From sequence record OL631479.1: a stretch of DNA of 64,000 nucleotides, one strand, 5' to 3'. Position numbers and translations under genes: made by a program. Below, one piece after another: positions 21,925-63,049 of this stretch. The notes under the pieces are model-generated. The model was not told the DNA's origin. It saw only the letters and a list, made by a program, of their open reading frames with translations, and made no database searches. Positions within the stretch are counted from its first letter, which is position 1; every line of letters begins with the position of its first letter. The DNA is from Escherichia phage ECML-10.

Positions 21925-22932
21925 TTATTCACTTTTCAGAGTTACTTTAACAACCAGCTCTGGACGGGTGTTAACTGCCAGCATAGAAGTTTCAGATTCA
22001 ATCTTCTCTTCACGCAGGTATGCAGAGTGTTTATACCACATGTACAGTTCCTGTGCTGGAGTGTTTGCTTCGTTAACATCGTCTGCCGGAGCAAAGTGCA
22101 GCTGGAACATCTGATCAATACCCATCGGCAGAATGCGAGCTTCTTTCTTAGGAATATTGCCAGAGATATCTTCGATAAAGGTGATACCTTTATGCTCAAA
22201 CACACGGTATACGCTGTCTTGACCGCCAGCACCCAGACGGCGACGCAGAGGTTCCTGAGCAGAGCCGTAATAGGTGTATGCCAGTTCTACCAGCGGGTGA
22301 TGAGTAACAGCACTGAAGAACTCCGGTGAGCACAGGGCTACAATGCGATAGCCAGCTGCGTTATCACCAGCTTGCAGTGCGATGTGCAGACGAGCTTCTT
22401 CCAGAACCTCCATAGGATCCTGATCTGCTTTTGCAGGGTCGATCTCAACAGACTTCTGAGACACACCCCACAGAGTGTAGTAATCATACTGGCAGGTAGC
22501 GTCACCAGGTGCATAGGATTTACCCAGAATAGCCTGGAACAGCGCTTTCTCACGCAGTGCTTCATGGGAAACACGGATACGGCGAACAACGCGGGTCACT
22601 ACGTCCTGAACAGTTTTCGGAGCATCAGGGGTGAAGTAACGACGGAAGTTCTGGACATCTGCAGCAGTGATGCCTTTATCCAGAGGGAAGAACGGGATGT
22701 TCAGGTTTTTAACCTGAGCACGTTCATTACCAACGTAGTTACGCTCACCACCACGACGGCGTGCTGGAATGTCGGTTACAACTTCATCAACACGCTCAAT
22801 CTGAGCAATTGTTGAGGTGCCGAGACGAGTTTCGAACAGATCCATACCGGTAATCAGGCGAAATTGACGCGGAACAAGGTCCAGAGTAGCACCTAAATCG
22901 ACAATGCCAAATTCATCTTTACGAGTAATCAT
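21925..22932 (-). CDS. Major capsid protein (lambda gpE-like)
   Basis: 335 aa; follows decoration gene and precedes strong terminator; resemblance to lambda E family from memory. Confidence 0.7.
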   Translation of the reverse strand: MITRKDEFGIVDLGATLDLVPRQFRLITGMDLFETRLGTSTIAQIERVDEVVTDIPARRRGGERNYVGNERAQVKNLNIPFFPLDKGITAADVQNFRRYFTPDAPKTVQDVVTRVVRRIRVSHEALREKALFQAILGKSYAPGDATCQYDYYTLWGVSQKSVEIDPAKADQDPMEVLEEARLHIALQAGDNAAGYRIVALCSPEFFSAVTHHPLVELAYTYYGSAQEPLRRRLGAGGQDSVYRVFEHKGITFIEDISGNIPKKEARILPMGIDQMFQLHFAPADDVNEANTPAQELYMWYKHSAYLREEKIESETSMLAVNTRPELVVKVTLKSE

Positions 22933-22984: not shown

Positions 22985-23371
22985 TTATTCACCAATAGTC
23001 TGGACGTGAACTTTGTTACCTAAAGCTTCCAACTTATCCAGAATTCTTTGGTCTGCTTTAGCTCCATCTGCACCTAACAGCATGTCTTTTGCAAAGGTGA
23101 CACCATGGACGGCAACAACCAGGTTATAGGATTGTCCTACTTCTAACGGTTTTGCAAGATGAACCGTACCAGCATCTTTGACAAGAGCACGGTCAACAAG
23201 AACGCCGTACACATCAGAACCGTCTGCGTTAGCGATGGTACCTGTTTTTGTTACAACAGTGCCAGCGTGGTGATGCTCTGTCAGTGTTACCTTAATCTCT
23301 TTAAAATTGTAGCCAGCATCGCTAGAATCAACTTTGCCGAGCACGATATCAGAATATTGAGCGGTAATCAT
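22985..23371 (-). CDS. Head decoration protein (lambda gpD-like)
   Basis: 128 aa ORF immediately upstream of major capsid gene. Confidence 0.5.
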   Translation of the reverse strand: MITAQYSDIVLGKVDSSDAGYNFKEIKVTLTEHHHAGTVVTKTGTIANADGSDVYGVLVDRALVKDAGTVHLAKPLEVGQSYNLVVAVHGVTFAKDMLLGADGAKADQRILDKLEALGNKVHVQTIGE

Positions 23372-23391: not shown

Positions 23392-24369
23392 TTATTTGTT
23401 AGATTCTGCACGTGCACGAGCAAGTGCTTTTGCAACGTTTTCAGCAAGAATTTCTTCTGCGGATTTTGCAATATCATCCACAACAGGTTCGCCATCATTA
23501 CCATGTTCAGTGGTGGCAAACTCTTCTTTAGTTTTATGCACCTCTGCTTCCAGCTCTTCAATTTTTGCTTGAGCTTTCTCCAGCATAGCTACGATAGGTT
23601 CGTTAGCTTTTTCCAGCATGAAGTCAACCAGGGTTGCGTGATCTTCTTCACCAACAAAGCTTAAAGCTTGAGCCTTAGTCAGCATTTTAGCTTTTTCAAC
23701 TTCAACCTGGGCCTTGATGATTTCTTCAGCTTTACTCTGGGTTGCTTTCAGCTCTTCTACTTGCTTCAGCAGATCCAGATACTCTTTAGTTTTGGTTACG
23801 TCCACCGGATTCTCCTCGGTATTTGCGGATTTTGCAACATCATCCACCTCGGTAGTTTTATCCACCTCAGCAGGTTCCTGTACCGCCTTGATCAGGTTCC
23901 CTTCTTTATCGAAGAGATCAGCGGTTACTTGTTCAAAAATCTGTTGTGTTTTTAACAGGCTGTACTGATCTACCACACTAAGCTGCTTGCCTTCTTTTGC
24001 AGCCTTATGAATGGTCACGTTATCACAACGCTCTTCCAGCCATGCAATACAAGACTCTGCGTCAGCTTGCGCCCATTCCCAATCAGGATGCTCTTTAGCC
24101 CAAGCCTCCTCTTCAATCTCAAAACCAAGCATGTGTGCAAGTGCTTTAGCATCATCATACCACATATCGAAGAAACGACGCAGGTATTCTTCAAAACTAA
24201 GCTCCACAGTAACTTGGCGAAGTGCCTTAACAATATCGTCTGTTAACTGCTCAGGCTTAAGATCACTCTTCATCAAAAGAGATACAGGTCTATTGTTAGC
24301 GCTATAGCCTTGCGCCTTGTGGCACAGGGCAATCCCCTTCTCTTTAATAGTAATCGTTTTTTCAGACAT
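23392..24369 (-). CDS. Putative scaffolding protein
   Basis: 325 aa with Glu/Lys-rich coiled-coil C-terminal half; between portal and capsid genes. Confidence 0.45.
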   Translation of the reverse strand: MSEKTITIKEKGIALCHKAQGYSANNRPVSLLMKSDLKPEQLTDDIVKALRQVTVELSFEEYLRRFFDMWYDDAKALAHMLGFEIEEEAWAKEHPDWEWAQADAESCIAWLEERCDNVTIHKAAKEGKQLSVVDQYSLLKTQQIFEQVTADLFDKEGNLIKAVQEPAEVDKTTEVDDVAKSANTEENPVDVTKTKEYLDLLKQVEELKATQSKAEEIIKAQVEVEKAKMLTKAQALSFVGEEDHATLVDFMLEKANEPIVAMLEKAQAKIEELEAEVHKTKEEFATTEHGNDGEPVVDDIAKSAEEILAENVAKALARARAESNK

Positions 24370-24800
24370 TATTCATTGCCCTCTTCTACAACACTGATCC
24401 CGAAGTTTACGTTGGTAATTTCACCAGTTTCTTCATCAACATTACCTGTTGCCTGAATGCTTAGGCCACCAACAATGCCAGCCTTCTTAGCTTCCCATAG
24501 TTCAGGATTATTGTATTTAACTTTAGCAACCCAAGAGCCAGCCTTGATGACCTGCTCAGTGCCAATCACTACAACATCAAACTCTTCTTGAATCCACGTC
24601 TTTTCAATGGTGAAAGCATCTGTAGAGGTCAAGTGGAAAAGGTTCTCAGAAACTAGGCCTGCGGCGTATGCTGCGTCCCAGTTATCTTTGGCCTTTTTGA
24701 TGGTGTCTTTACTCATCCACTCCCCGTGAGCATCTTTAGTGTCAGGTTCGTAGATGATTTCGTAGGAAATCATTTCTTCCTGTGGCATCTTATTCCCCAT
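24369..24800 (-). CDS. Hypothetical head morphogenesis protein
   Basis: ORF trimmed to internal ATG (24800 or 24788) to avoid overlap with portal. Confidence 0.3.
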   Translation of the reverse strand: MGNKMPQEEMISYEIIYEPDTKDAHGEWMSKDTIKKAKDNWDAAYAAGLVSENLFHLTSTDAFTIEKTWIQEEFDVVVIGTEQVIKAGSWVAKVKYNNPELWEAKKAGIVGGLSIQATGNVDEETGEITNVNFGISVVEEGNE

Positions 24801-24855
24801 GTGGATTATTTTATCACGCCAAAGGAGGTTTTGCAACCCCCTGTGTTGATAATTT

Positions 24856-26412
24856 TTAATTTTCCATGTTGGATATGGAATTATCTCTGGTTGATGACAT
24901 CTTAGAAGTGCCGTTGCCAGTGGATCCTGCAGCCATTCCATCACCAGCCCTACTGATGTCCTGGCCCAAGAGCTTCATCAGCTCTTCCTGATCCATGTCC
25001 TCGTCAAATCTTTCATCAAACCCGCCTACTTCAAGAATCTTATTAATTACTGCAGGAGTTTTTGGCAAGTAACCTACAGCACCGATCCTCTGGACAAACT
25101 TGGAGAAGCTCTCCATGTCCACTTCTTCAATCAGACCAGGTTTCAGTTTAGGCATATCATCATCCTCAAGGATGATACCATTCAATGCCAGAAGCTGTGG
25201 AATAAGATCTTTATTGAAGGCCTCAGTGATAATATCTATATCACGCTGAACAAAATGACCATGAATAGATTGTTTTGACTCAGACAGAGAGAAGGATCCA
25301 ACGTTATCGTTACCAAGGTTAATAAAGCCAGCACCGAAACGGTCAAGAATCGCCTTCTTACGGGCATCAATCAAATCTTTAGTGGAATACTGCTTACCCA
25401 TACCGTCAACCCCCTTCAGGGTCATGGAGTAAAGCTCTTTACCAGACTTATCTCTATCAGACGGAAGTATAAAGAAACTTTGCTCACCACTATGGGCGTT
25501 TGCTGCGTCAAGCATAAGGTCTGCAACCATTCTCCCTTCCATTGAATTCGGGTCAATGCTGGCCTTGTTCAAAATATTGGAAGGAATTTTCAGCTCAAGC
25601 ACACCACCAAGGTCTTTGGAACAGCCAACAACCTCAAGGTTTTCAATCAGAACTTTCTCACGGAAAGATCTGTAGCAACCTATCATCGGTGACACACCTG
25701 CAGGGTTAGATTCTGTTCCTGACAGGGTCATGAGCATAAGCTTTTTAGCAGGGATGAAAATTTCAGGCTCATTAAAGCCTTTTGAAGGCATTGCAGCAAG
25801 AGGTCCAGCCCAGCGTGCATTCTGAGTGTTTAGAAATGCATTAGGTGACTGATAAATACCTGTCAGTGTTCTACTATTCTTGTCAAAGACAAACGGCTCT
25901 GATCTGGACAAACTGGCCTGAGGTCGGAATGCAATTTTATCAATAAGAAGCATCCCGGCATATTTACCTTCTTTCTCTCTGCGGTATACTTTCTCAAACA
26001 GTGAAAAACCATACTCGTTAAAGGTAGCTGCGCTTCTTGCAATATCTCGAAGAGTTTGTTGGTTTGCCAAATTACGCAAAGAATACTCTATAAGCTCGGC
26101 AGCTTTCTTAGAGTCTTCACTTTTAACATTGTAAAGGATCTTAAAATCATTGAATGCTTTCGTGATGAAAACATATTTTGTATCTAAGGCAGTAGCAACT
26201 GTGGAATCACATTTCATAGTCTCCACTGTGGCAATCAGCTGAGGCCAACGCAATTCCTCAACCATCATAGATTGCGATTCTGCCATAATTTGGGAAAGTG
26301 CGCCAGAACCGATCTCACTCATACGAACATTATGAGTTGGTGCGCCTGCGTTCCCAGATTTATTCACAGTTTTGGCTGTGGCGTTGTGTTTCCTGCGGTT
26401 CTTTTTGGACAC
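24856..26412 (-). CDS. Portal protein
   Basis: 518 aa ORF immediately downstream of terminase, upstream of scaffold/capsid genes. Confidence 0.6.
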   Translation of the reverse strand: MSKKNRRKHNATAKTVNKSGNAGAPTHNVRMSEIGSGALSQIMAESQSMMVEELRWPQLIATVETMKCDSTVATALDTKYVFITKAFNDFKILYNVKSEDSKKAAELIEYSLRNLANQQTLRDIARSAATFNEYGFSLFEKVYRREKEGKYAGMLLIDKIAFRPQASLSRSEPFVFDKNSRTLTGIYQSPNAFLNTQNARWAGPLAAMPSKGFNEPEIFIPAKKLMLMTLSGTESNPAGVSPMIGCYRSFREKVLIENLEVVGCSKDLGGVLELKIPSNILNKASIDPNSMEGRMVADLMLDAANAHSGEQSFFILPSDRDKSGKELYSMTLKGVDGMGKQYSTKDLIDARKKAILDRFGAGFINLGNDNVGSFSLSESKQSIHGHFVQRDIDIITEAFNKDLIPQLLALNGIILEDDDMPKLKPGLIEEVDMESFSKFVQRIGAVGYLPKTPAVINKILEVGGFDERFDEDMDQEELMKLLGQDISRAGDGMAAGSTGNGTSKMSSTRDNSISNMEN

Positions 26413-26514: not shown

Positions 26515-27321
26515 TTAGATAAAACGCTTGAACATAGAAGGTGATGAGATTGATGGAATCACACAAGGAAGTGCTACCTCCTCTTTCTCCAGGAAATTAA
26601 TCGCAGAAGCTACACAGTCGGCCCAGTCGTCTTTCCTGTTAAATGTTGATCTTTCCCCGTTGAATTTTTCAAGTTCAGTCAGAAATGCTTCCAGAGTATC
26701 AGGATGGAAACTGGATTTTACAATCCTAACCATTCCTTGTTGGGCAAGATTGGCAAAAGGTGAGAACCTTGTCAGTTTAGATTTGTTGGAAGGCATTGGG
26801 TCTTCTTCAACCCTAAACCCTTCGGCGAGCAAGGATCTGGAGGATGTTAAGAACTCACTCTTACCTGCCTGACCAGGGTCCACAGAGAATACGATTATAC
26901 AATCATCACCATCAAACTGCGCCTGTTTCCTGATGATCACATCTCGTTCACCAGCCTTTTTACAGAACTTACCTTCCAGACCTGTGGAATACCTCCCGTC
27001 ATCAACGTTCTCAGGACAATAATCACCGGACAGGTAATAAAAGCCGTCGCTATCCTTACTTACCTTAACACTGGCTGTAAAGTCAGGAAATTTATTACCG
27101 GAAGTTCTCTCGGTTCCTGCCTTATCCCATGCCCTGCAAGATACTGATCCAAGGGGTACTCTATCGGCATCACGAAGGAAAGATCTTTGAAAATAGTTTG
27201 CACCCTCAGGCTTTGCAAACCAGTTGCCATGAAGAAGCTGGGCTTTTTCAAGCTCGGGCAGACCTTCAAGAAAAGCAAGGTATTCTGGGTTGTCTCTTAA
27301 GCAGACAGGATTATCGAATCC
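26515..27321 (-). CDS. terL: Terminase large subunit, C-terminal nuclease part (putative exon 2)
   Basis: Frame open from 27321 to 26515 (269 codons, longer than the 141-aa track ORF); RAWDKAGT and DFTAS motifs typical of terminase nuclease domain. Confidence 0.65.
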   Translation of the reverse strand, partial: GFDNPVCLRDNPEYLAFLEGLPELEKAQLLHGNWFAKPEGANYFQRSFLRDADRVPLGSVSCRAWDKAGTERTSGNKFPDFTASVKVSKDSDGFYYLSGDYCPENVDDGRYSTGLEGKFCKKAGERDVIIRKQAQFDGDDCIIVFSVDPGQAGKSEFLTSSRSLLAEGFRVEEDPMPSNKSKLTRFSPFANLAQQGMVRIVKSSFHPDTLEAFLTELEKFNGERSTFNRKDDWADCVASAINFLEKEEVALPCVIPSISSPSMFKRFI

Positions 27322-28291
27322 TTATATTCAAAGGTGGTCGCAACACCACCTTCCGCACCTTTACGTGCTGCTGCATGTTACCATGCAGAGTAGACTATAT
27401 CACCACCCATTTCAGGGTGCTTCGCTTTTCGAGCGCCATAAGCTTGCGCCCTACTCCCTCTCGGGATAGTCGTTGAACTACATTACCAATCGTAATTGTT
27501 TGAAATATAGGTGTAAGTCTTACGGTCTTTTATTCCTTTAACAACACTAAAACTTACTCCCCACTTCTTAGCTATTTTATTTACACACAAGACCTTATCA
27601 CTAAGATCCTCGCAGATACCTATTATCTTGTGCTCACTTATCCGATTAGAGGTTGGCACTTTTCTAAAGTTAAACTCTTTAGAAATATCTGGGTATACTG
27701 AGCCATTCTTTATACCACTTACAAGTGGTTGATTGACACCAAACATTTCACAAATGTCTTTTACCCTTGCGCCTTGCTCTAACAGCCTACATATTTCAAG
27801 AGCAGTGGCATCATCCAGAGACCTGTATTTATTGACATAGTCCTTTTTAAGTCCCATTTCATGAGCGTGATGTGTGTTTTCCTCAGGCGTTGTCCACTCA
27901 AGGTTCCATGCGGCGTTATTCAACTTATTACCATCTAGGTGGTTTACTTGAGTTTTTACGCTGGGATTGTCATTATCAACAAAAGTCATAGCAATCACTC
28001 TGTGAACGAGCACTTGGAACTTTTTACCGTCCTCGCACAAAGTTACCATAGCATAGCCAGTCTTTTTCTGCACATTAGGATGGAGGAATTTATTAGAATA
28101 CAGACTGTAAATTCTGCCATCGTATGTAGCACAATAATGATTGTAGCCTAAAAAGCCTAAATTTTTCATTTCAAACATCTCCCTACTACAGGTTCGGAAG
28201 GGTAATTATAGCTGCTGATTGTCCGTTTAGCAATCGGATTTCCCAGCAATTAACGAAGTTATTCGACGTGCATTTCTGCACGAAGCCACTA
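27322..28291 (-). other. Intervening sequence in terL, putative group I intron carrying an HNH ORF
   Basis: ~970 bp between the two terminase halves; same-strand HNH ORF; 3' part contains a GATATAGTCT-like element. Boundaries approximate. Confidence 0.45.
27483..28178 (-). CDS. HNH homing endonuclease
   Basis: 231 aa; HNH motif VNHLDGNKLNNAAWNLEWTTPEEN; located inside interrupted terminase gene. Confidence 0.8.
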   Translation of the reverse strand: MFEMKNLGFLGYNHYCATYDGRIYSLYSNKFLHPNVQKKTGYAMVTLCEDGKKFQVLVHRVIAMTFVDNDNPSVKTQVNHLDGNKLNNAAWNLEWTTPEENTHHAHEMGLKKDYVNKYRSLDDATALEICRLLEQGARVKDICEMFGVNQPLVSGIKNGSVYPDISKEFNFRKVPTSNRISEHKIIGICEDLSDKVLCVNKIAKKWGVSFSVVKGIKDRKTYTYISNNYDW

Positions 28292-29041
28292 TCATTTAAT
28301 GGTTGCGCCTATGAACGAGAATGACAACGGTCTTGGCTTGATCTCTACACCCAGTCCGTTAACCGTGGTGTATTTCTCTATCAACTCTTCTTTAGAGTCT
28401 CCCCATATAAATTCACCGTCGCGTCGGATAAAATATCTTTTCTTACCGCATTTCTCCGGATCTGGATACCCTTCATCGTCCAACCACCATCTAACCAGTT
28501 TGGCAAGCATGTGTTCTGAATCGGGGTTACAGCTGATAACCATTCTTGATGGATACTTTGACTGAGATCGCAGACGAGACATCAGATAGTCTATCTGCTC
28601 CCATTCGAACTGCGTGCCCTCATCGAAGCAAACCATGGTGTACTCAAGCCCCTGATGGTTAAGCTTATCTTGTACATACTCCATGTGGCAGTATTTTACA
28701 ACAGCTCCCTTTTTGCTTCTATCCCACTTGCCAGTGCTCGGATCAAACCGTGGAAAAATGAACTTATGATCCTTCTCTCTGAACTTTGGCTTAATGTTTT
28801 CAGGCAGATCACTATAAATAGCTACTGCTTTAGGCCATAGTCCACCCTCACCTTCCAACTGTGGGGTTGTTCTTCGGAACATAACCACAGAGCTGTGGGG
28901 GTCATCAATAATTTTAAGTGGCATCAACTGCAAGAGGAACGACTTGCCAGACCCTGCGGCACCGCCGATTACCAAAATATCTGCATCGTTTTCTAGGATC
29001 ATCTTCTGCTTTTCAGAACACGGTCCGTAAATCTTAGACAT
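28292..29041 (-). CDS. terL: Terminase large subunit, N-terminal ATPase part (putative exon 1)
   Basis: Walker A GGAAGSGKS, Walker B-like VCFDEG; 249 aa. Confidence 0.75.
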   Translation of the reverse strand: MSKIYGPCSEKQKMILENDADILVIGGAAGSGKSFLLQLMPLKIIDDPHSSVVMFRRTTPQLEGEGGLWPKAVAIYSDLPENIKPKFREKDHKFIFPRFDPSTGKWDRSKKGAVVKYCHMEYVQDKLNHQGLEYTMVCFDEGTQFEWEQIDYLMSRLRSQSKYPSRMVISCNPDSEHMLAKLVRWWLDDEGYPDPEKCGKKRYFIRRDGEFIWGDSKEELIEKYTTVNGLGVEIKPRPLSFSFIGATIK

Positions 29042-57822: not shown

Positions 57823-58950
57823 GTGTCCAGAAAACTTACAACAGATGAGTTTATAAAGAGGGCAAAAGCAGTTCATGGAGATAAGTATGATTACTCTAAG
57901 GTTGAGTATGTAAATGCCTGCACCAAGGTTATAATTATCTGCCCATATCATGGAGAATTTGAACAAGCTACCCACCAACACCTTGCAGGACGAGGCTGCC
58001 GGGAATGTGGAAAGCTAAAAATGGCACAAAGCCACATTATACCACATAAGGAGTGGTTGAATGTTATCCAAGAGGTCAATCCTTATGTCGAAGTGATTGG
58101 AGAAATAATAAGCTGCAGAACAAAAGTGCCGTGCCGCTGCAAAATTTGCAGTCATGAATGGTCAGCAATGCCTTATCTTCTTAAACAAGGACATGGGTGC
58201 CCTAGATGCGGCAAGCTAAAATTCGCACAAAGCAGAGCTATAGCCCATACCGAGTGGGTCGAGGACATAACGAAGAAAAATACATATATTGAAATAGTAG
58301 AAAGGGTTAAAAATAGCGATACACCAGTATTGGCACGATGCAAAATTTGTAGTCATGAATGGTTAGCAAGACCATCCCATCTTAAACGAGGGCATGGGTG
58401 CCCTAGATGTAAAGGCAATGCAAAGAGATCCCATGTGGAATGGGTAGGGCATATAAAGGTTGTCAATCCAAGTATTAAAGTGCTTGGAAAAATTAAAAAC
58501 GGCAGTGCAAAAGTATTATGTAGGTGTAAGATTTGTGATTATGAATGGTCTCCTGCTCCTATTAGGCTCAAGCAAGGACATGGGTGCCCTAGATGTGCTA
58601 ACTACGGCTTTTTATCGTACAATCACGGCAAACTTTACATTATGGTTGATGACTTAGAAGTACCAACACTTATGAAGATCGGTATTAGCGTCAGTGTCGA
58701 AGAGAGAAAAGATAGGATATTGAAAAGTGCCAAAAGGGCAGGGGTAGGTATTTATGATCTCTACCTGGCGAAAACGTGGGAAGGATCAACTCAAAACATG
58801 GCAGATTTAGAAAAATCTGTGCATAAGGCCTTCAGCAAGTATAAAATAAACTTCCCTGTAAAATTTGATGGTAGCACAGAATTCTTCTACTACAGGCCTG
58901 AAGTGTTTGACACGGTGGAAGAAGTATACAGGAAGATTTGTGGTAAATGA
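57823..58950 (+). CDS. Zinc-finger repeat protein with C-terminal GIY-YIG/T5orf172-like domain (putative nuclease)
   Basis: Four ~60-aa repeats (C-x-C-K-I-C...HEW...GHGCPRC) also visible as nucleotide repeats; C-terminal KLYIMVDD...MKIGIS; GTG start. Confidence 0.35.
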   Translation: MSRKLTTDEFIKRAKAVHGDKYDYSKVEYVNACTKVIIICPYHGEFEQATHQHLAGRGCRECGKLKMAQSHIIPHKEWLNVIQEVNPYVEVIGEIISCRTKVPCRCKICSHEWSAMPYLLKQGHGCPRCGKLKFAQSRAIAHTEWVEDITKKNTYIEIVERVKNSDTPVLARCKICSHEWLARPSHLKRGHGCPRCKGNAKRSHVEWVGHIKVVNPSIKVLGKIKNGSAKVLCRCKICDYEWSPAPIRLKQGHGCPRCANYGFLSYNHGKLYIMVDDLEVPTLMKIGISVSVEERKDRILKSAKRAGVGIYDLYLAKTWEGSTQNMADLEKSVHKAFSKYKINFPVKFDGSTEFFYYRPEVFDTVEEVYRKICGK

Positions 58951-59592: not shown

Positions 59593-59622
59593 TTGACAAA
59601 GCTTTGTTTAGATAGGTATAAT
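59593..59622 (+). promoter_or_regulatory. Sigma70-like promoter (TTGACA-N18-TATAAT)
   Basis: Consensus hexamers; same family as 42251, 50346, 60986. Confidence 0.6.
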
Positions 59623-60152: not shown

Positions 60153-60941
60153 ATGGGTCGAGCTAAAGAAACAAAACGCATGCGTGATGAAGCTAGAGAG
60201 GCTCGCAAATCTGATCGCCTGCGTAAGGCTGCTGAGAAATTTGCTGACGAACGAGAGCACACCGCTCCAGCTCTCCGACCAATGAATAAAAAGCAGCAAA
60301 AGTATCTTGATTATCTAGGGTCACGTAAGATTATTATTGTAAACGGTGTGTTTGGATCCGGTAAGACATTCATGGCATCTGCATATGCAGGTGATCTTCT
60401 GCGTAAGAATGAGATTGATAAGATCATTGTTGCACGTCCTTATGTACAGACCGGAAAATCAAGCGGATACAAACCGGGAACGTCAATGCAGAAGCTTTGG
60501 CCTTACCTTCGTAGTATGATGGACACGATTTGTCGTCGTGTTGGCAAAGGTGCTTTTGCCGCAATGCTGGGAGACGGTCAGAACAGCCGTATCGAGATTT
60601 GTGAAGTTGAAAGCATTCGTGGTCGTAGTTTCGATGAGCGATGCTTTGTCCTGATTGACGAGGCACAGCAAACTAACCCTGAAGAAATGTTGTCAATTAT
60701 CACAAGGATCTCTGATCAGGCCACCCTTGTAATTATGGGCGATAATAGCCAACGTGACATCCCTGGTAAATCTGGCCTTGCATGGGTGACGGATTTCTTT
60801 ACTCGTCATCCAGATCCTGAGGTTGGAATGATCAGCTTTGATAGTCCAGACGATGTCGTTCGTTCCGGGTTGGGTCGTCAGATTGCACTCAATCTTATTG
60901 AGGATCGTGCAAATCATATTTGGACCCCTGTTTCCGAGTAA
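60153..60941 (+). CDS. phoH: PhoH-like ATPase
   Basis: 262 aa; Walker A GVFGSGKTF and PhoH-like downstream motifs. Confidence 0.85.
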   Translation: MGRAKETKRMRDEAREARKSDRLRKAAEKFADEREHTAPALRPMNKKQQKYLDYLGSRKIIIVNGVFGSGKTFMASAYAGDLLRKNEIDKIIVARPYVQTGKSSGYKPGTSMQKLWPYLRSMMDTICRRVGKGAFAAMLGDGQNSRIEICEVESIRGRSFDERCFVLIDEAQQTNPEEMLSIITRISDQATLVIMGDNSQRDIPGKSGLAWVTDFFTRHPDPEVGMISFDSPDDVVRSGLGRQIALNLIEDRANHIWTPVSE

Positions 60942-60985: not shown

Positions 60986-61014
60986 TTGACAAATAGGCAA
61001 GCTTTAGATATTAT
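60986..61014 (+). promoter_or_regulatory. Sigma70-like promoter (TTGACA-N17-TATTAT)
   Basis: Follows hairpin 60947-60967; -10 context GATATTATTATCGG resembles promoter at 42251. Confidence 0.55.
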
Positions 61015-61041: not shown

Positions 61042-61354
61042 TATGGCCACAATACAAGAGAAACTGAATAAAATATACTGCCTGTTTGTCTATAACGGCG
61101 AGACAATTTTGGCATATAAAGGATCCAAGAATGTATGGATCAAGGACAGTGGTGGTAATATAATCAATTTAGCGTTGCTACGTGAGCGCCGACACAGATT
61201 CTTTATCGAGTCTAGAATTATTGAAAGTAGTACCTGCTACAGAACAGGCGATAAAGTAATTGTTGACAATGATACGTGGTATGTGGTAGACTGGCAATCA
61301 TTGAGCTGTGATGCTTCTGACAATCGTAAGTACTCTATAGTGATTGCTAAATAA
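61042..61354 (+). CDS. Hypothetical protein
   Basis: Start ATG 61042 with RBS AAGGAGAAGG downstream of promoter. Confidence 0.3.
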
Positions 61355-61414
61355 AGGTAAATGTGAATCAGGTTTAAATAAATAGCTTTCAACTTCCAAT
61401 ATTAAGGATTTCTC

Positions 61415-62464
61415 ATGAATTTAACACCTCGCAGCACCATGGTACACGGCATGAAAGAAAAACAGAACGGTTTCGAACCTATGAGTAATAAAATGTTCGG
61501 TATGCCGGGTGGTATTATGGAAACATACAGCTACCCAACACCAGTTGTTGACCACGTTCTTTATATCGACGATTTGGAAGACTTACAAGATCATATGTCT
61601 CGTCTGCAGACGATCCGTATGGCTCAGCCGGAAGAAAGCATTCGGGTGATCATCAATAGCCCTGGGGGTTGCGTGCACATTGCAATGGCTTATCTGCAGG
61701 CATTCCGCGAGTCTCAGGCAAGCGTTGTTGCACATGCTGAAGGGATGTGTTGCTCTGCTGGAACAATCTTATGGCTTGGTTGCAAAGAACGTACTGTGGC
61801 TCCGGACACAGAATTTATGTTCCACTACTATCAAGGTGGCACTTATGGTAACGGTGTGAACATGAATACTCAGGTCAGCTACTGGAAAAAACGTTTTGAA
61901 CGCCTGATCGAAAAATACTACGGTGAGGTGCTGACAGAAGATGAGATCGCATCCATCACAGCTGGTGGCGAAGTGTGGTTGGACGGAGAAGAGCTGGCAG
62001 CACGCACTGGAGCTATTATTCTGGATGAAGGCAACATACAACGCATCCAGAACGGACAAAAACCGAAAAAGCTTCTGGCAAAAGGTGATGAGGAAGGCGT
62101 GTTAGGTGAAGCAGGTCTTCCGGAGATTCACCAGTGCACATCTTTAGATGAGTTAGTTCATGCTGTTGAATCTGCAAAAGAGGGTGGTTCGAAAGGTGAT
62201 GTTCACACTGTGTTCCTGAATCTGCAGATGGAAAGTGGCGAGACCGTCCGAATTGCCCTGGGTGAGATTACTTCAGAAGATCTGCAGAGATTCTCTGTCG
62301 TTGAACTTCAGGATATTCTGTCTCAATTGAAGACCACTCTGAACGGCGGTGAAGAGGTTAAGGTGAAAGATAAGACTCGCAAGCGTCTTGTGGACAATAT
62401 TATTAAAACAGCAAAAGAGCTCAATGAAAAAATCCTGGGTGCAGGAATTGTCGAAGAAGCTTAA
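61415..62464 (+). CDS. ClpP-like serine protease (S14 family) with C-terminal extension
   Basis: VIINSPGGCVHIAMA and HAEGMCCSAGT (catalytic Ser context); ~150 aa Glu-rich C-terminal extension. Confidence 0.7.
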   Translation: MNLTPRSTMVHGMKEKQNGFEPMSNKMFGMPGGIMETYSYPTPVVDHVLYIDDLEDLQDHMSRLQTIRMAQPEESIRVIINSPGGCVHIAMAYLQAFRESQASVVAHAEGMCCSAGTILWLGCKERTVAPDTEFMFHYYQGGTYGNGVNMNTQVSYWKKRFERLIEKYYGEVLTEDEIASITAGGEVWLDGEELAARTGAIILDEGNIQRIQNGQKPKKLLAKGDEEGVLGEAGLPEIHQCTSLDELVHAVESAKEGGSKGDVHTVFLNLQMESGETVRIALGEITSEDLQRFSVVELQDILSQLKTTLNGGEEVKVKDKTRKRLVDNIIKTAKELNEKILGAGIVEEA

Positions 62465-62515: not shown

Positions 62516-63049
62516 ATGACTTGTGCTAGAAAACCTGATGAACAACGTAACGCATACGATGAGTATGTGACACCGGAGTGGTGTGCAGAAGGGCTGTATG
62601 ACCTCATTCCGTTCCCAGAAGATTGGACCTATTTGGAGCCTTGCAGAAATAGCGCCTCAGGCGTGTTCTACTCCCGTATGCCGTTAGGATCTGCATGGGG
62701 AGAAATCCAAGAAGGTGTTGACTATCTGAATACAGAATACAACCATGTTGACTGTATTATCACCAACCCACCGTACAGCTTGGCTCGTGAGTTTGTAGAC
62801 AAGGCGTTGAAAGATGCTGACGTAGTTATTATGCTTTTGCGTCTTAATTTTCTGGAAAGCAAAGCCAGATTTGAATGGTGGCTTGATAATGCACCTACCA
62901 CTGTGATCACAATATCTAAGCGTCCATCATTCCAATCGAATGGCAGAACTGACGGGCAAGCATATGCATATTTTGTATGGGACAAGAAAAACCGTCTAGA
63001 CTTGCCGCCATTTATGTGGTTGGCACCACCAGAGGCAGATTTGAAATGA
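62516..63049 (+). CDS. Small N6-adenine methyltransferase-like protein
   Basis: 177 aa; DCIITNPPY (motif IV) and EPCRNSASGVF (motif I-like). Confidence 0.4.
   Translation: MTCARKPDEQRNAYDEYVTPEWCAEGLYDLIPFPEDWTYLEPCRNSASGVFYSRMPLGSAWGEIQEGVDYLNTEYNHVDCIITNPPYSLAREFVDKALKDADVVIMLLRLNFLESKARFEWWLDNAPTTVITISKRPSFQSNGRTDGQAYAYFVWDKKNRLDLPPFMWLAPPEADLK

Follow-up and report, generated by a model that had tools for sequence, protein, structure and literature searches.

ClpP-fold proteases of bacteria and phages

Bacterial ClpP (family S14; the Escherichia coli enzyme, PDB 1tyf and 3mt6) is one of the closest described relatives of the protein analyzed here, which is encoded by a ClpP-like gene at positions 61415 to 62464 in a 64,000-nucleotide stretch of Escherichia phage ECML-10 (sequence record OL631479.1), referred to below as the window. 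Phages themselves encode the ClpP fold in head-maturation proteases (NF045542 and NF045540; lambda gpC type), which are often C-terminally extended, and in short nonstructural proteases (PHROG 1827: ICP1 ORF211, Barba gp072, phiPsa374_045 and the KVP40/K571 type; jumbo-phage "ClpP serine protease"). The latter are encoded among replication and nucleotide-metabolism genes, often beside PhoH, and Iyer et al. (2021) suggested that phage ClpP proteases, being of patchy distribution, are directed at host proteins. In the literature searched, we found no functional study of phage-encoded ClpP homologues, of ORF122 of phage rV5, which is the counterpart of the ECML-10 gene, or of ICP1 ORF211; the mentions found are at the level of annotation.

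The ECML-10 protein shares with bacterial ClpP the fold, the catalytic Ser and His, the oxyanion Gly, and the Gly-rich handle strand. It differs in carrying Glu (Gln in most relatives) for the catalytic Asp, a polar docking pocket, a partial deletion of helix B, an unalignable N-terminus, and an added linker and C-terminal module of about 135 amino acids, and it scores far under the equivalog cutoffs. Like the head-maturation proteases, it is a phage-encoded ClpP fold with a C-terminal extension, but its gene lies outside the head module and behind sigma-70-type promoters, its scores are below the family cutoffs, and its extension does not look scaffold-like. The PHROG 1827 proteases have a homologous protease domain and a similar gene location, whereas they lack the C-terminal module of the rV5 family, measure just 182 to 245 amino acids apart from the long-tailed ICP1 protein, and in several cases keep the triad Asp. 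According to our analysis, the ECML-10 protein is a divergent variant of a known enzyme kind, and we favor, with moderate confidence, the reading that it is a ClpP-fold serine protease that stands alone, is not part of the virion, and has host or phage proteins of the cytoplasm as its substrates. The work refines an annotation and does not overturn current ideas; what it adds is evidence against both the "ATP-dependent ClpP subunit" and the "prohead protease" labels, the definition of an orphan C-terminal module, and a recurrent PhoH neighborhood.

Identity and distribution of the gene

The gene and its ribosome-binding site are as follows.

61415..62464, plus strand: ClpP-like protease gene, equivalent to rV5 ORF122 and MaxBurger bas54_0171; 349 amino acids (open reading frame [ORF] list, Pfam CLP_protease, phrog_5410)
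61404..61409, plus strand: Shine-Dalgarno (SD) sequence TAAGGA, with the core AAGGA 6 nucleotides 5' of the ATG at 61415 (direct sequence reading and SD scan)

The gene is confirmed as real and conserved, being annotated in more than 100 records and having its own PHROG. The 4-kb region around it is 97 to 98% identical to rV5-like Escherichia phages (Vequintavirus; 122 matching records), copies of the protein at least 95% identical to it occur in 118 phage records, and it shows 99.4% identity with the JES2013 product named "putative ClpP ATP-dependent protease subunit." rV5 ORF122 is annotated as "ClpP ATP-dependent protease subunit" (Table S3, PMC3606486), a label that dates from 2006, and bas54_0171 of the BASEL phage MaxBurger is called "ClpP-like protease." The profile phrog_5410 ("ATP-dependent protease") spans the full protein including the C-terminal tail (E=3.7e-155; residues 24 to 345 on profile positions 4 to 322 of 323), so that, together with the rV5 and MaxBurger annotations, both the gene and its unusual length were already catalogued. 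A second profile, phrog_1827, matches residues 52 to 200 (E=2.6e-40), and none of the PADLOC anti-phage defense models matches the protein. Nineteen unannotated GenBank records (MG0656xx) named "Campylobacter phage," with Campylobacter jejuni as listed host, are also about 96% identical to the gene region; these are likely to be records with mislabelled hosts or contaminating coliphages.

Fold and catalytic residues of the protease domain

Family alignments were made with 17 and 27 sequences of 40 to 99% identity, and the AlphaFold2 (AF2) model was built on the 27 family sequences. The E. coli ClpP reference, validated as 207/207 identical to PDB 3mt6, was aligned by hmmalign to the profile of the family protease domain. 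The following elements of the N-terminal part and of the protease domain were delimited, with model confidence given as predicted local distance difference test (pLDDT) values.

61415..61546, plus strand: N-terminal region, residues 1 to 44, predicted disordered (pLDDT 31 to 39); conserved N25, F28, G29, Y40, and P41
61547..62056, plus strand: ClpP-fold protease domain, residues 45 to 214 (AF2 pLDDT ~90 for residues 45 to 215, Foldseek, family alignment)
61754..61756, plus strand: codon of the catalytic Ser114 (CCSAG), aligned with E. coli ClpP S97; Ser in 27/27 family members and invariant in distant phage lineages
61823..61825, plus strand: codon of the catalytic His137, aligned with E. coli ClpP H122; His in 27/27 and invariant in distant lineages
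61970..61972, plus strand: codon of Glu186, at the position of the ClpP triad Asp171 (HMMER alignment "ERDFWL" versus "GGEVWL")

Pfam CLP_protease (PF00574) matches residues 59 to 172 with E=1.1e-12 and 48.7 bits against a gathering score of 20.2, and in a Foldseek search with the AF2 model the top 50 PDB matches are all ClpP chains (E ~1e-10; template modeling score on the target 0.63 to 0.74). Since the Pfam score, a confident model, and the structural matches agree, the resemblance to ClpP is far above chance. The alternatives SppA (S49), NfeD, and SDH stay below the Pfam gathering cutoff (NfeD1b_N, 18.9 versus 40 bits; SDH_protease, 15.7 versus 31.3 bits). Within the family, the protease domain has a mean pairwise identity of 75% and a constant length of 170 to 171 amino acids, and its profile aligns with the ICP1 protein in hhalign with 99.6% probability.

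An earlier note, made from the DNA letters, had described the reading frame as ClpP-like on the motifs INSPGG and CCSAGT and as about 150 amino acids longer than ClpP. The ORF list, Pfam, PHROG, and the AF2/Foldseek comparison bear out the former, the motifs standing at residues 80 to 85 and 112 to 117, and the protein exceeds the E. coli ClpP precursor (207 amino acids) by 142 amino acids. The same note had named a catalytic triad missing from an alignment as what would refute it, and here the outcome is divided. Ser114 and His137 are invariant, the oxyanion-hole G68 of E. coli ClpP corresponds to G85 in 27/27 members, and the Gly-rich handle strand is also kept, but the Asp position is occupied by Glu in ECML-10 and, across the family, by Gln in 22/27, Glu in 5/27, and Asp in 0/27. 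The full Ser-His-Asp triad that defines ClpP (S14) is thus not present; the Ser-His pair is intact and the Asp is replaced. Elsewhere, Asp is found at this position in ICP1, in a T5-like Klebsiella phage, and in Xoo-sp13, Glu in Pakpunavirus, and Gln in Barba, and the retention of Asp in the first three points to an ancestral Asp that has drifted to Glu or Gln. In Listeria monocytogenes ClpP1, a naturally occurring Ser-His-Asn variant of the ClpP fold (hetero-complex 4ryf), an amide takes the place of the triad Asp; this enzyme differs from the phage protein in being a cellular paralogue, in keeping the ATPase-docking architecture by way of the partner subunit ClpP2, and in lacking an additional domain.

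The replacement of Asp by Gln in 22 of the 27 members could also be taken as a sign of a catalytically attenuated ClpP-like protein that acts mainly by binding, as a decoy, an inhibitor, or a chaperone-like assembly factor, and the invariant polar residues of surface type (R77, E99, H107, and E109) together with the tethered C-terminal module point to protein-protein interfaces. However, no family member departs from Ser114, His137, Gly85, or the Gly-rich strand that binds substrate, with Ser and His kept across very distant lineages as well, and because this invariance is hard to explain without catalysis we deem a binding-only protein very unlikely.

Comparison with the ATP-dependent ClpP subunit

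If the GenBank label "ATP-dependent protease subunit" were taken at face value, the phage protein would be a true ClpP subunit that works with host ClpX or ClpA, alone or in mixed rings, and redirects ATP-dependent proteolysis. Its ClpP fold with the Ser, His, oxyanion Gly, and handle region kept, and its passing of the Pfam CLP_protease gathering score, speak for such a role, as does the fact that natural ClpP paralogues with a non-Asp third residue function in hetero-complexes, the ClpP1/2 complex 4ryf being among the structure matches. The docking surface argues otherwise. In E. coli ClpP, the pocket that receives the IGF loop of ClpX and the IGL loop of ClpA is formed by L23, L48, F49, A52, Y60, Y62, F82, I90, M92, F112, L114, and L189 (ClpAP cryo-electron microscopy, bioRxiv 10.1101/820209). 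Seven of these 12 residues can be aligned with the family, and 6 of the 7 have turned polar or small: Y60 is replaced by R77, F82 by E99, I90 by H107, M92 by E109, and F112 by T127, each in 27/27 members, and L114 is Ser or Ala. Y62, replaced by Val or Ile, is the sole aligned residue that stays hydrophobic. L48, F49, and A52 fall inside a five-residue segment of helix B that is missing from the family, and L23 and L189 are unalignable. By this alignment, the family has exchanged the hydrophobic surface that docks ClpX and ClpA for polar residues that do not vary.

For the axial loops and helix A, which make up the first 47 residues of E. coli ClpP, the alignment offers no counterpart, and the phage N-terminus (residues 1 to 42) is disordered in the model yet holds invariant residues. 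The ClpP equivalog model TIGR00493 gives 33.5 bits against a cutoff of 308.6, and the NCBIfam ClpP PRK models give 22 to 40 bits against 228 to 361. Among the annotations of the related MaxBurger genome, there is no ClpX or ClpA homologue. On these grounds, we regard a canonical ClpP subunit as unlikely.

The best NCBIfam models are instead NF045542 ("head maturation protease, ClpP-related"), with 61.7 bits against a cutoff of 120, and NF045540 (ClpP-like protease/major capsid protein [MCP] fusion), with 52.9 against 475, and the best head-maturation PHROGs are 1684 (E=7e-22), 94, 2976, and 133, over a range of E=1e-22 to 1e-14. The ClpP-fold enzyme thus qualifies neither as an ATP-dependent ClpP subunit nor as a head-maturation protease, and it reaches no NCBIfam cutoff, the broad Pfam domain model being the only one passed. 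The label "ClpP ATP-dependent protease subunit," common in phage genomes and copied between records, appears to be misleading twice for this family, whose members seem to lack an unfoldase-docking surface and are probably not head-maturation proteases.

The C-terminal extension

Downstream of the protease domain, the model and the family alignment divide the extension into two parts.

62057..62206, plus strand: variable, mostly disordered linker, residues 215 to 264 (pLDDT <50 for residues 223 to 242 and 257 to 263)
62207..62440, plus strand: conserved orphan C-terminal module, residues 265 to 342, composed of a beta-hairpin, a short helix, and two long helices

The linker has a mean pairwise identity of 21% in the family and a length of 23 to 50 amino acids, whereas the module shows 37% identity, 75 to 83 amino acids, and the invariant residues F293, E297, and R322, and gives pLDDT 81 to 93 when modeled alone. 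Conservation and stable length of the module next to a variable linker fit a tethered functional domain. The earlier note had called the extension acidic. This holds for most relatives, where the module has a net charge of -6 to -15, and less so in ECML-10, where the extension (isoelectric point [pI] 4.97, net charge -8) does not exceed the protease domain (pI 4.76) in acidity.

The module is an orphan in the searches carried out. With the 150-amino-acid extension as query, phmmer against 1.84 billion representative proteins returned the family alone, plus two degenerate repeat proteins (P0027 and P0028), which we judged to be spurious upon reading their sequences. A BFVD search with the module gave one significant match, a 303-amino-acid protein of 28% identity that is evidently a family member, and a permissive Pfam scan of all 27 members yielded nothing recurrent. 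A resemblance of the module to SAP/Rho-N domains is below the usual significance and without Pfam support. Homology between the long tail of the ICP1 protein and that of the rV5 family was considered and rejected, as hhalign aligned the protease domain alone.

Capsid maturation and the head module

The head genes of ECML-10 form a module on the minus strand, listed here by coordinate.

21925-22932, minus strand: MCP (lambda gpE-like, Pfam Phage_cap_E)
22985-23371, minus strand: decoration protein
23392..24369, minus strand: head scaffold, 325 amino acids, pI 4.69, between the protease and the decoration protein/MCP; "head scaffold protein" in MaxBurger
24369..24788, minus strand: XkdF/Peptidase_S78_2 prohead protease, 139 amino acids (PF14550, E=8.7e-18, 65 bits versus a cutoff of 24; phrog_3017, "head maturation protease")
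24856-26412, minus strand: portal

The XkdF protein keeps His21 and Ser110, and its MaxBurger counterpart bas54_0006 is annotated as "prohead protease." With this protease and a separate scaffold arranged as portal-protease-scaffold-MCP, the canonical order, the phage has no need of a second prohead protease. The ClpP-like gene lies 35 to 39 kb from the head genes on the opposite strand, and outside the head module in all relatives examined. The combination of a head-module protease with a distant ClpP-like gene is also found in Barbavirus and in siphophage P26059A (XkdF, ORF10; ClpP, ORF116).

This arrangement bears on the suggestion of the earlier note that the gene, placed after phoH and far from the head genes, as it indeed is, might encode a prohead protease-scaffold fusion. 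More broadly, a remotely encoded head-assembly protease could be a second prohead protease or a protease-scaffold fusion with a module that targets the procapsid, for which lambda gpC/Nu3 and the ClpP-like protease-MCP fusions are models. The top curated families of the ClpP-like protein are those of head-maturation proteases (NF045542, NF045540, and phrog_1684, 94, 2976, and 133), and C-terminal extensions are typical of protease-scaffold and protease-MCP fusions. On the other hand, the NF045542 score remains under its cutoff, and the extension, for which the earlier note had asked for a structure prediction, turned out to be a disordered linker with a compact alpha/beta module of about 78 amino acids that bears no detectable likeness to a scaffold: it is dissimilar to the scaffold of the phage itself (E=0.3), and there were zero scaffold matches in the PDB or BFVD, although the module might still serve in capsid targeting. 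The SD scan found no SD-preceded in-frame internal start of the lambda C/Nu3 style in the ORF, orthologues in other lineages (182 to 236 amino acids) have no extension at all, and the gene always stands in replication or nucleotide-metabolism blocks, T4-like phage included.

Virion proteomics of rV5 is also relevant here. Mass spectrometry of rV5 virions detected 19 loci, and gp122, the product of ORF122, was not among them (PMC3606486). As the scaffold (62) and the XkdF protease (63) were likewise undetected in the same study (PMC3606486), the absence of gp122 from virions is weak evidence. The first tryptic peptide of the rV5 MCP begins at residue 5 (Table S5, PMC3606486), which indicates that the capsid protein is not N-terminally trimmed; head maturation probably amounts to scaffold removal. 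An MCP that escapes N-terminal processing leaves the maturation chemistry of the phage incompletely defined, and this is a point in favor of a head-assembly role. All in all, we consider such a role for the ClpP-like protein improbable, and the remote protease-scaffold fusion in particular is disfavored.

Next to the portal gene, the large terminase gene looks split into fragments at 26515-26940 and 28292-29041 (minus strand), with a 231-amino-acid HNH homing-endonuclease ORF at 27483-28178 between them. This agrees with the heading "introns in terminase" in the rV5 paper and with the two-piece terminase annotation of MaxBurger.

Gene neighborhood and linkage to PhoH

The immediate neighbors of the ClpP-like gene are the following.

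60153..60941, plus strand: PhoH-like ATPase, gp120 (Pfam PhoH, E=6.4e-47), one ORF upstream of the ClpP-like gene
61043..61354, plus strand: small ORF equivalent to rV5 ORF121, 103 amino acids (phrog_5456, E=1e-38; rV5 annotation)
62516..63049, plus strand: DNA methyltransferase-like gene, downstream neighbor (phrog_799, E=5.1e-67)

The conserved order reads ribonucleotide reductase (RNR) alpha/beta, glutaredoxin, (endolysin), PhoH, one to four small ORFs, and the ClpP-like gene, usually followed by the methyltransferase-like gene, which also stands 3' of the ClpP-like gene in 4MG, PBES02, KNP2, and Barba. The RNR-PhoH-ClpP-like order is kept in Vequintavirus, Seunavirus, Mydovirus, Certrevirus, Erwinia phage Hena1, and two metagenomic lineages, down to 40% identity. 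In other lineages, the ClpP-like gene is found among replication genes, including the T4-like K571, where it lies between dihydrofolate reductase and DNA repair genes.

ORF121 is probably cotranscribed with the ClpP-like gene. The motif VIVDxDxxxVxDW at its C-terminus recurs in the ORFs that precede the protease gene in 4MG, KNP2, and PBES02, and proteins of the ORF121 type may be conserved partners of the ClpP-like protease. In Seunavirus, Mydovirus, and Certrevirus, ORFs of about 160 amino acids with VIVDxDxxxVxDW abut or overlap the protease start (L005:3538-4020, L006:3448-3942, and L007:3477-3953 in the loci compared).

For the linkage to PhoH, ten independent lineages were sampled by hand. 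In five of them (Vequintavirinae and kin, ICP1, Barbavirus, Otagovirus, and P26059A), PhoH lies zero to four genes upstream of the ClpP-like gene. The order in Barbavirus is PhoH, CLP protease, Dam methylase; in Otagovirus phiPsa374, an unannotated upstream gene (L013:3148-3909) matches Pfam PhoH (E=3.1e-45) and shares 8 nucleotides with the start of the protease gene; and in siphophage P26059A, PhoH is ORF117 next to ClpP as ORF116. In the other five (Pakpunavirus, a T5-like phage, Xoo-sp13, K571, and the N4-like pYD6-A), the 4 to 5 kb around the ClpP-like gene contain no PhoH. At 5/10 lineages, the PhoH/ClpP-like linkage is nonrandom enough to note.

The two neighbors could form a functional pair, in which an RNA- or ribonucleoprotein-directed ATPase resembling superfamily 1 (SF1) helicases would work with a protease possibly tethered to nucleic acid through a helix-extended-helix-like module; within the rV5 group, it would fall to the orphan C-terminal module to tether substrate or nucleic acid. 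PhoH is an RNA helicase-type ATPase related to SF1 helicases and has no known role as a protein unfoldase, and a direct ATPase-protease machine is therefore unlikely. Half of the sampled lineages carry the ClpP-like gene without a nearby PhoH, the synteny could come from the inheritance of a common replication module, and the SAP/Rho-N resemblance that would support nucleic-acid binding is subsignificant. We thus give little credence to the pair and find it quite doubtful that the ClpP-like protease and the PhoH-like ATPase constitute a functional two-gene unit conserved among large lytic phages, represented by Vequintavirinae, ICP1, Barbavirus, Otagovirus, and P26059A. If they did, a concrete partner and a testable role would be at hand for the phage phoH "auxiliary metabolic gene," in a pairing previously unrecognized. 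The recurrent pairing also offers an entry point to phoH, which is in wide use as a phage marker gene but has no functional explanation.

Farther upstream, just before nrdG, a 375-amino-acid ORF at 57823-58950 (plus strand) encodes three DUF4379/CapR treble-clef zinc-finger repeats and a homing-endonuclease-like T5orf172 domain. At this site, rV5 has just three small ORFs (114 to 116), and the ORF looks like a mobile-element insertion specific to ECML-10.

Promoters and proposed role

Two consensus promoters were found by the promoter scan upstream of the ClpP-like gene.

59593-59622, plus strand: sigma-70 consensus promoter, 12/12 (rV5 P118); consensus match only
60986..61014, plus strand: sigma-70 consensus promoter, 11/12 (rV5 P121), upstream of ORF121 and the ClpP-like gene

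On the plus strand, the scan showed no terminator-like site between the promoter at 60986-61014, ORF121, and position 61415. The rV5 paper assigns ORF122 to transcription unit 82-163 and not to the late unit, 27-66, and it describes a T4-late-like motif in front of the late genes. In the window, the late-promoter-like motif TGGTAAAATA is enriched, with 15 matches at no more than one mismatch against 6.1 expected, a number that 0/100 shuffles reach. Its exact copies (2620, 16774, and 20296, minus strand) are confined to the structural region, and copies with one mismatch lie at 24807 and 26482 (minus strand), directly upstream of the XkdF protease and portal genes. Sigma-70-type promoters and the lack of an exact late motif near the ClpP-like gene speak further, if indirectly, against a head-assembly protease. 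In support of that role, gp133, which is encoded in the transcription unit of ORF122 and is among the most abundant rV5 virion proteins by mass spectrometry (PMC3606486), demonstrates that this unit can encode virion proteins; its gene is at 94702-95157 of the rV5 record, about 1.5 kb past the window end and a few kb downstream of the ClpP-like gene.

Taken as a stand-alone protease, the ClpP-like protein would be transcribed by the host sigma-70 RNA polymerase, jointly with ORF121, within the RNR-glutaredoxin-PhoH-ClpP-like-methylase block, and would be produced in the replication phase, before or independently of the late head genes. Its protease domains would self-assemble via the ClpP core into a ClpP-like ring, in which the C-terminal module on its flexible linker might act as a built-in recognition or gating element that replaces the partner of the AAA+ (ATPases associated with diverse cellular activities) type. 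The enzyme would cut selected host or phage proteins of the cytoplasm while the phage takes over the cell and replicates, and capsid maturation would be left to the XkdF protease of the head module. A host-directed protease, the second suggestion of the earlier note, fits the evidence and agrees with the independent proposal of Iyer et al. (2021).

Several points weigh against this interpretation. All statements on its activity, its oligomeric state, the timing of its expression, and its substrates are inferences, and Gln at the Asp position in 22/27 members might signal an activity that is low or conditional. The curated models with the highest scores are those of phage head-maturation ClpP-related proteases, which makes an assembly-related role conceivable, and prohead proteases are often missing from mature virions, so that the negative mass spectrometry result for gp122 discriminates little. 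The promoter calls are consensus matches only, and one copy of the late motif with one mismatch occurs at 61153-61162, inside ORF121, with no exact copy near the ClpP-like gene. Lastly, because gp133 shares the transcription unit of ORF122, position alone is no proof of a nonstructural role. If the protein is nevertheless a stand-alone protease of the replication phase, it would be a candidate host-takeover or regulatory enzyme in phages of E. coli O157 and Klebsiella that are used for biocontrol and therapy.

Two observations concern genome organization at large. As gp133 illustrates, the virion proteins of rV5-like phages are not confined to the late structural block. The GC skew of the window changes from negative to positive at about 34 to 36 kb, where the minus-strand structural genes give way to plus-strand genes.

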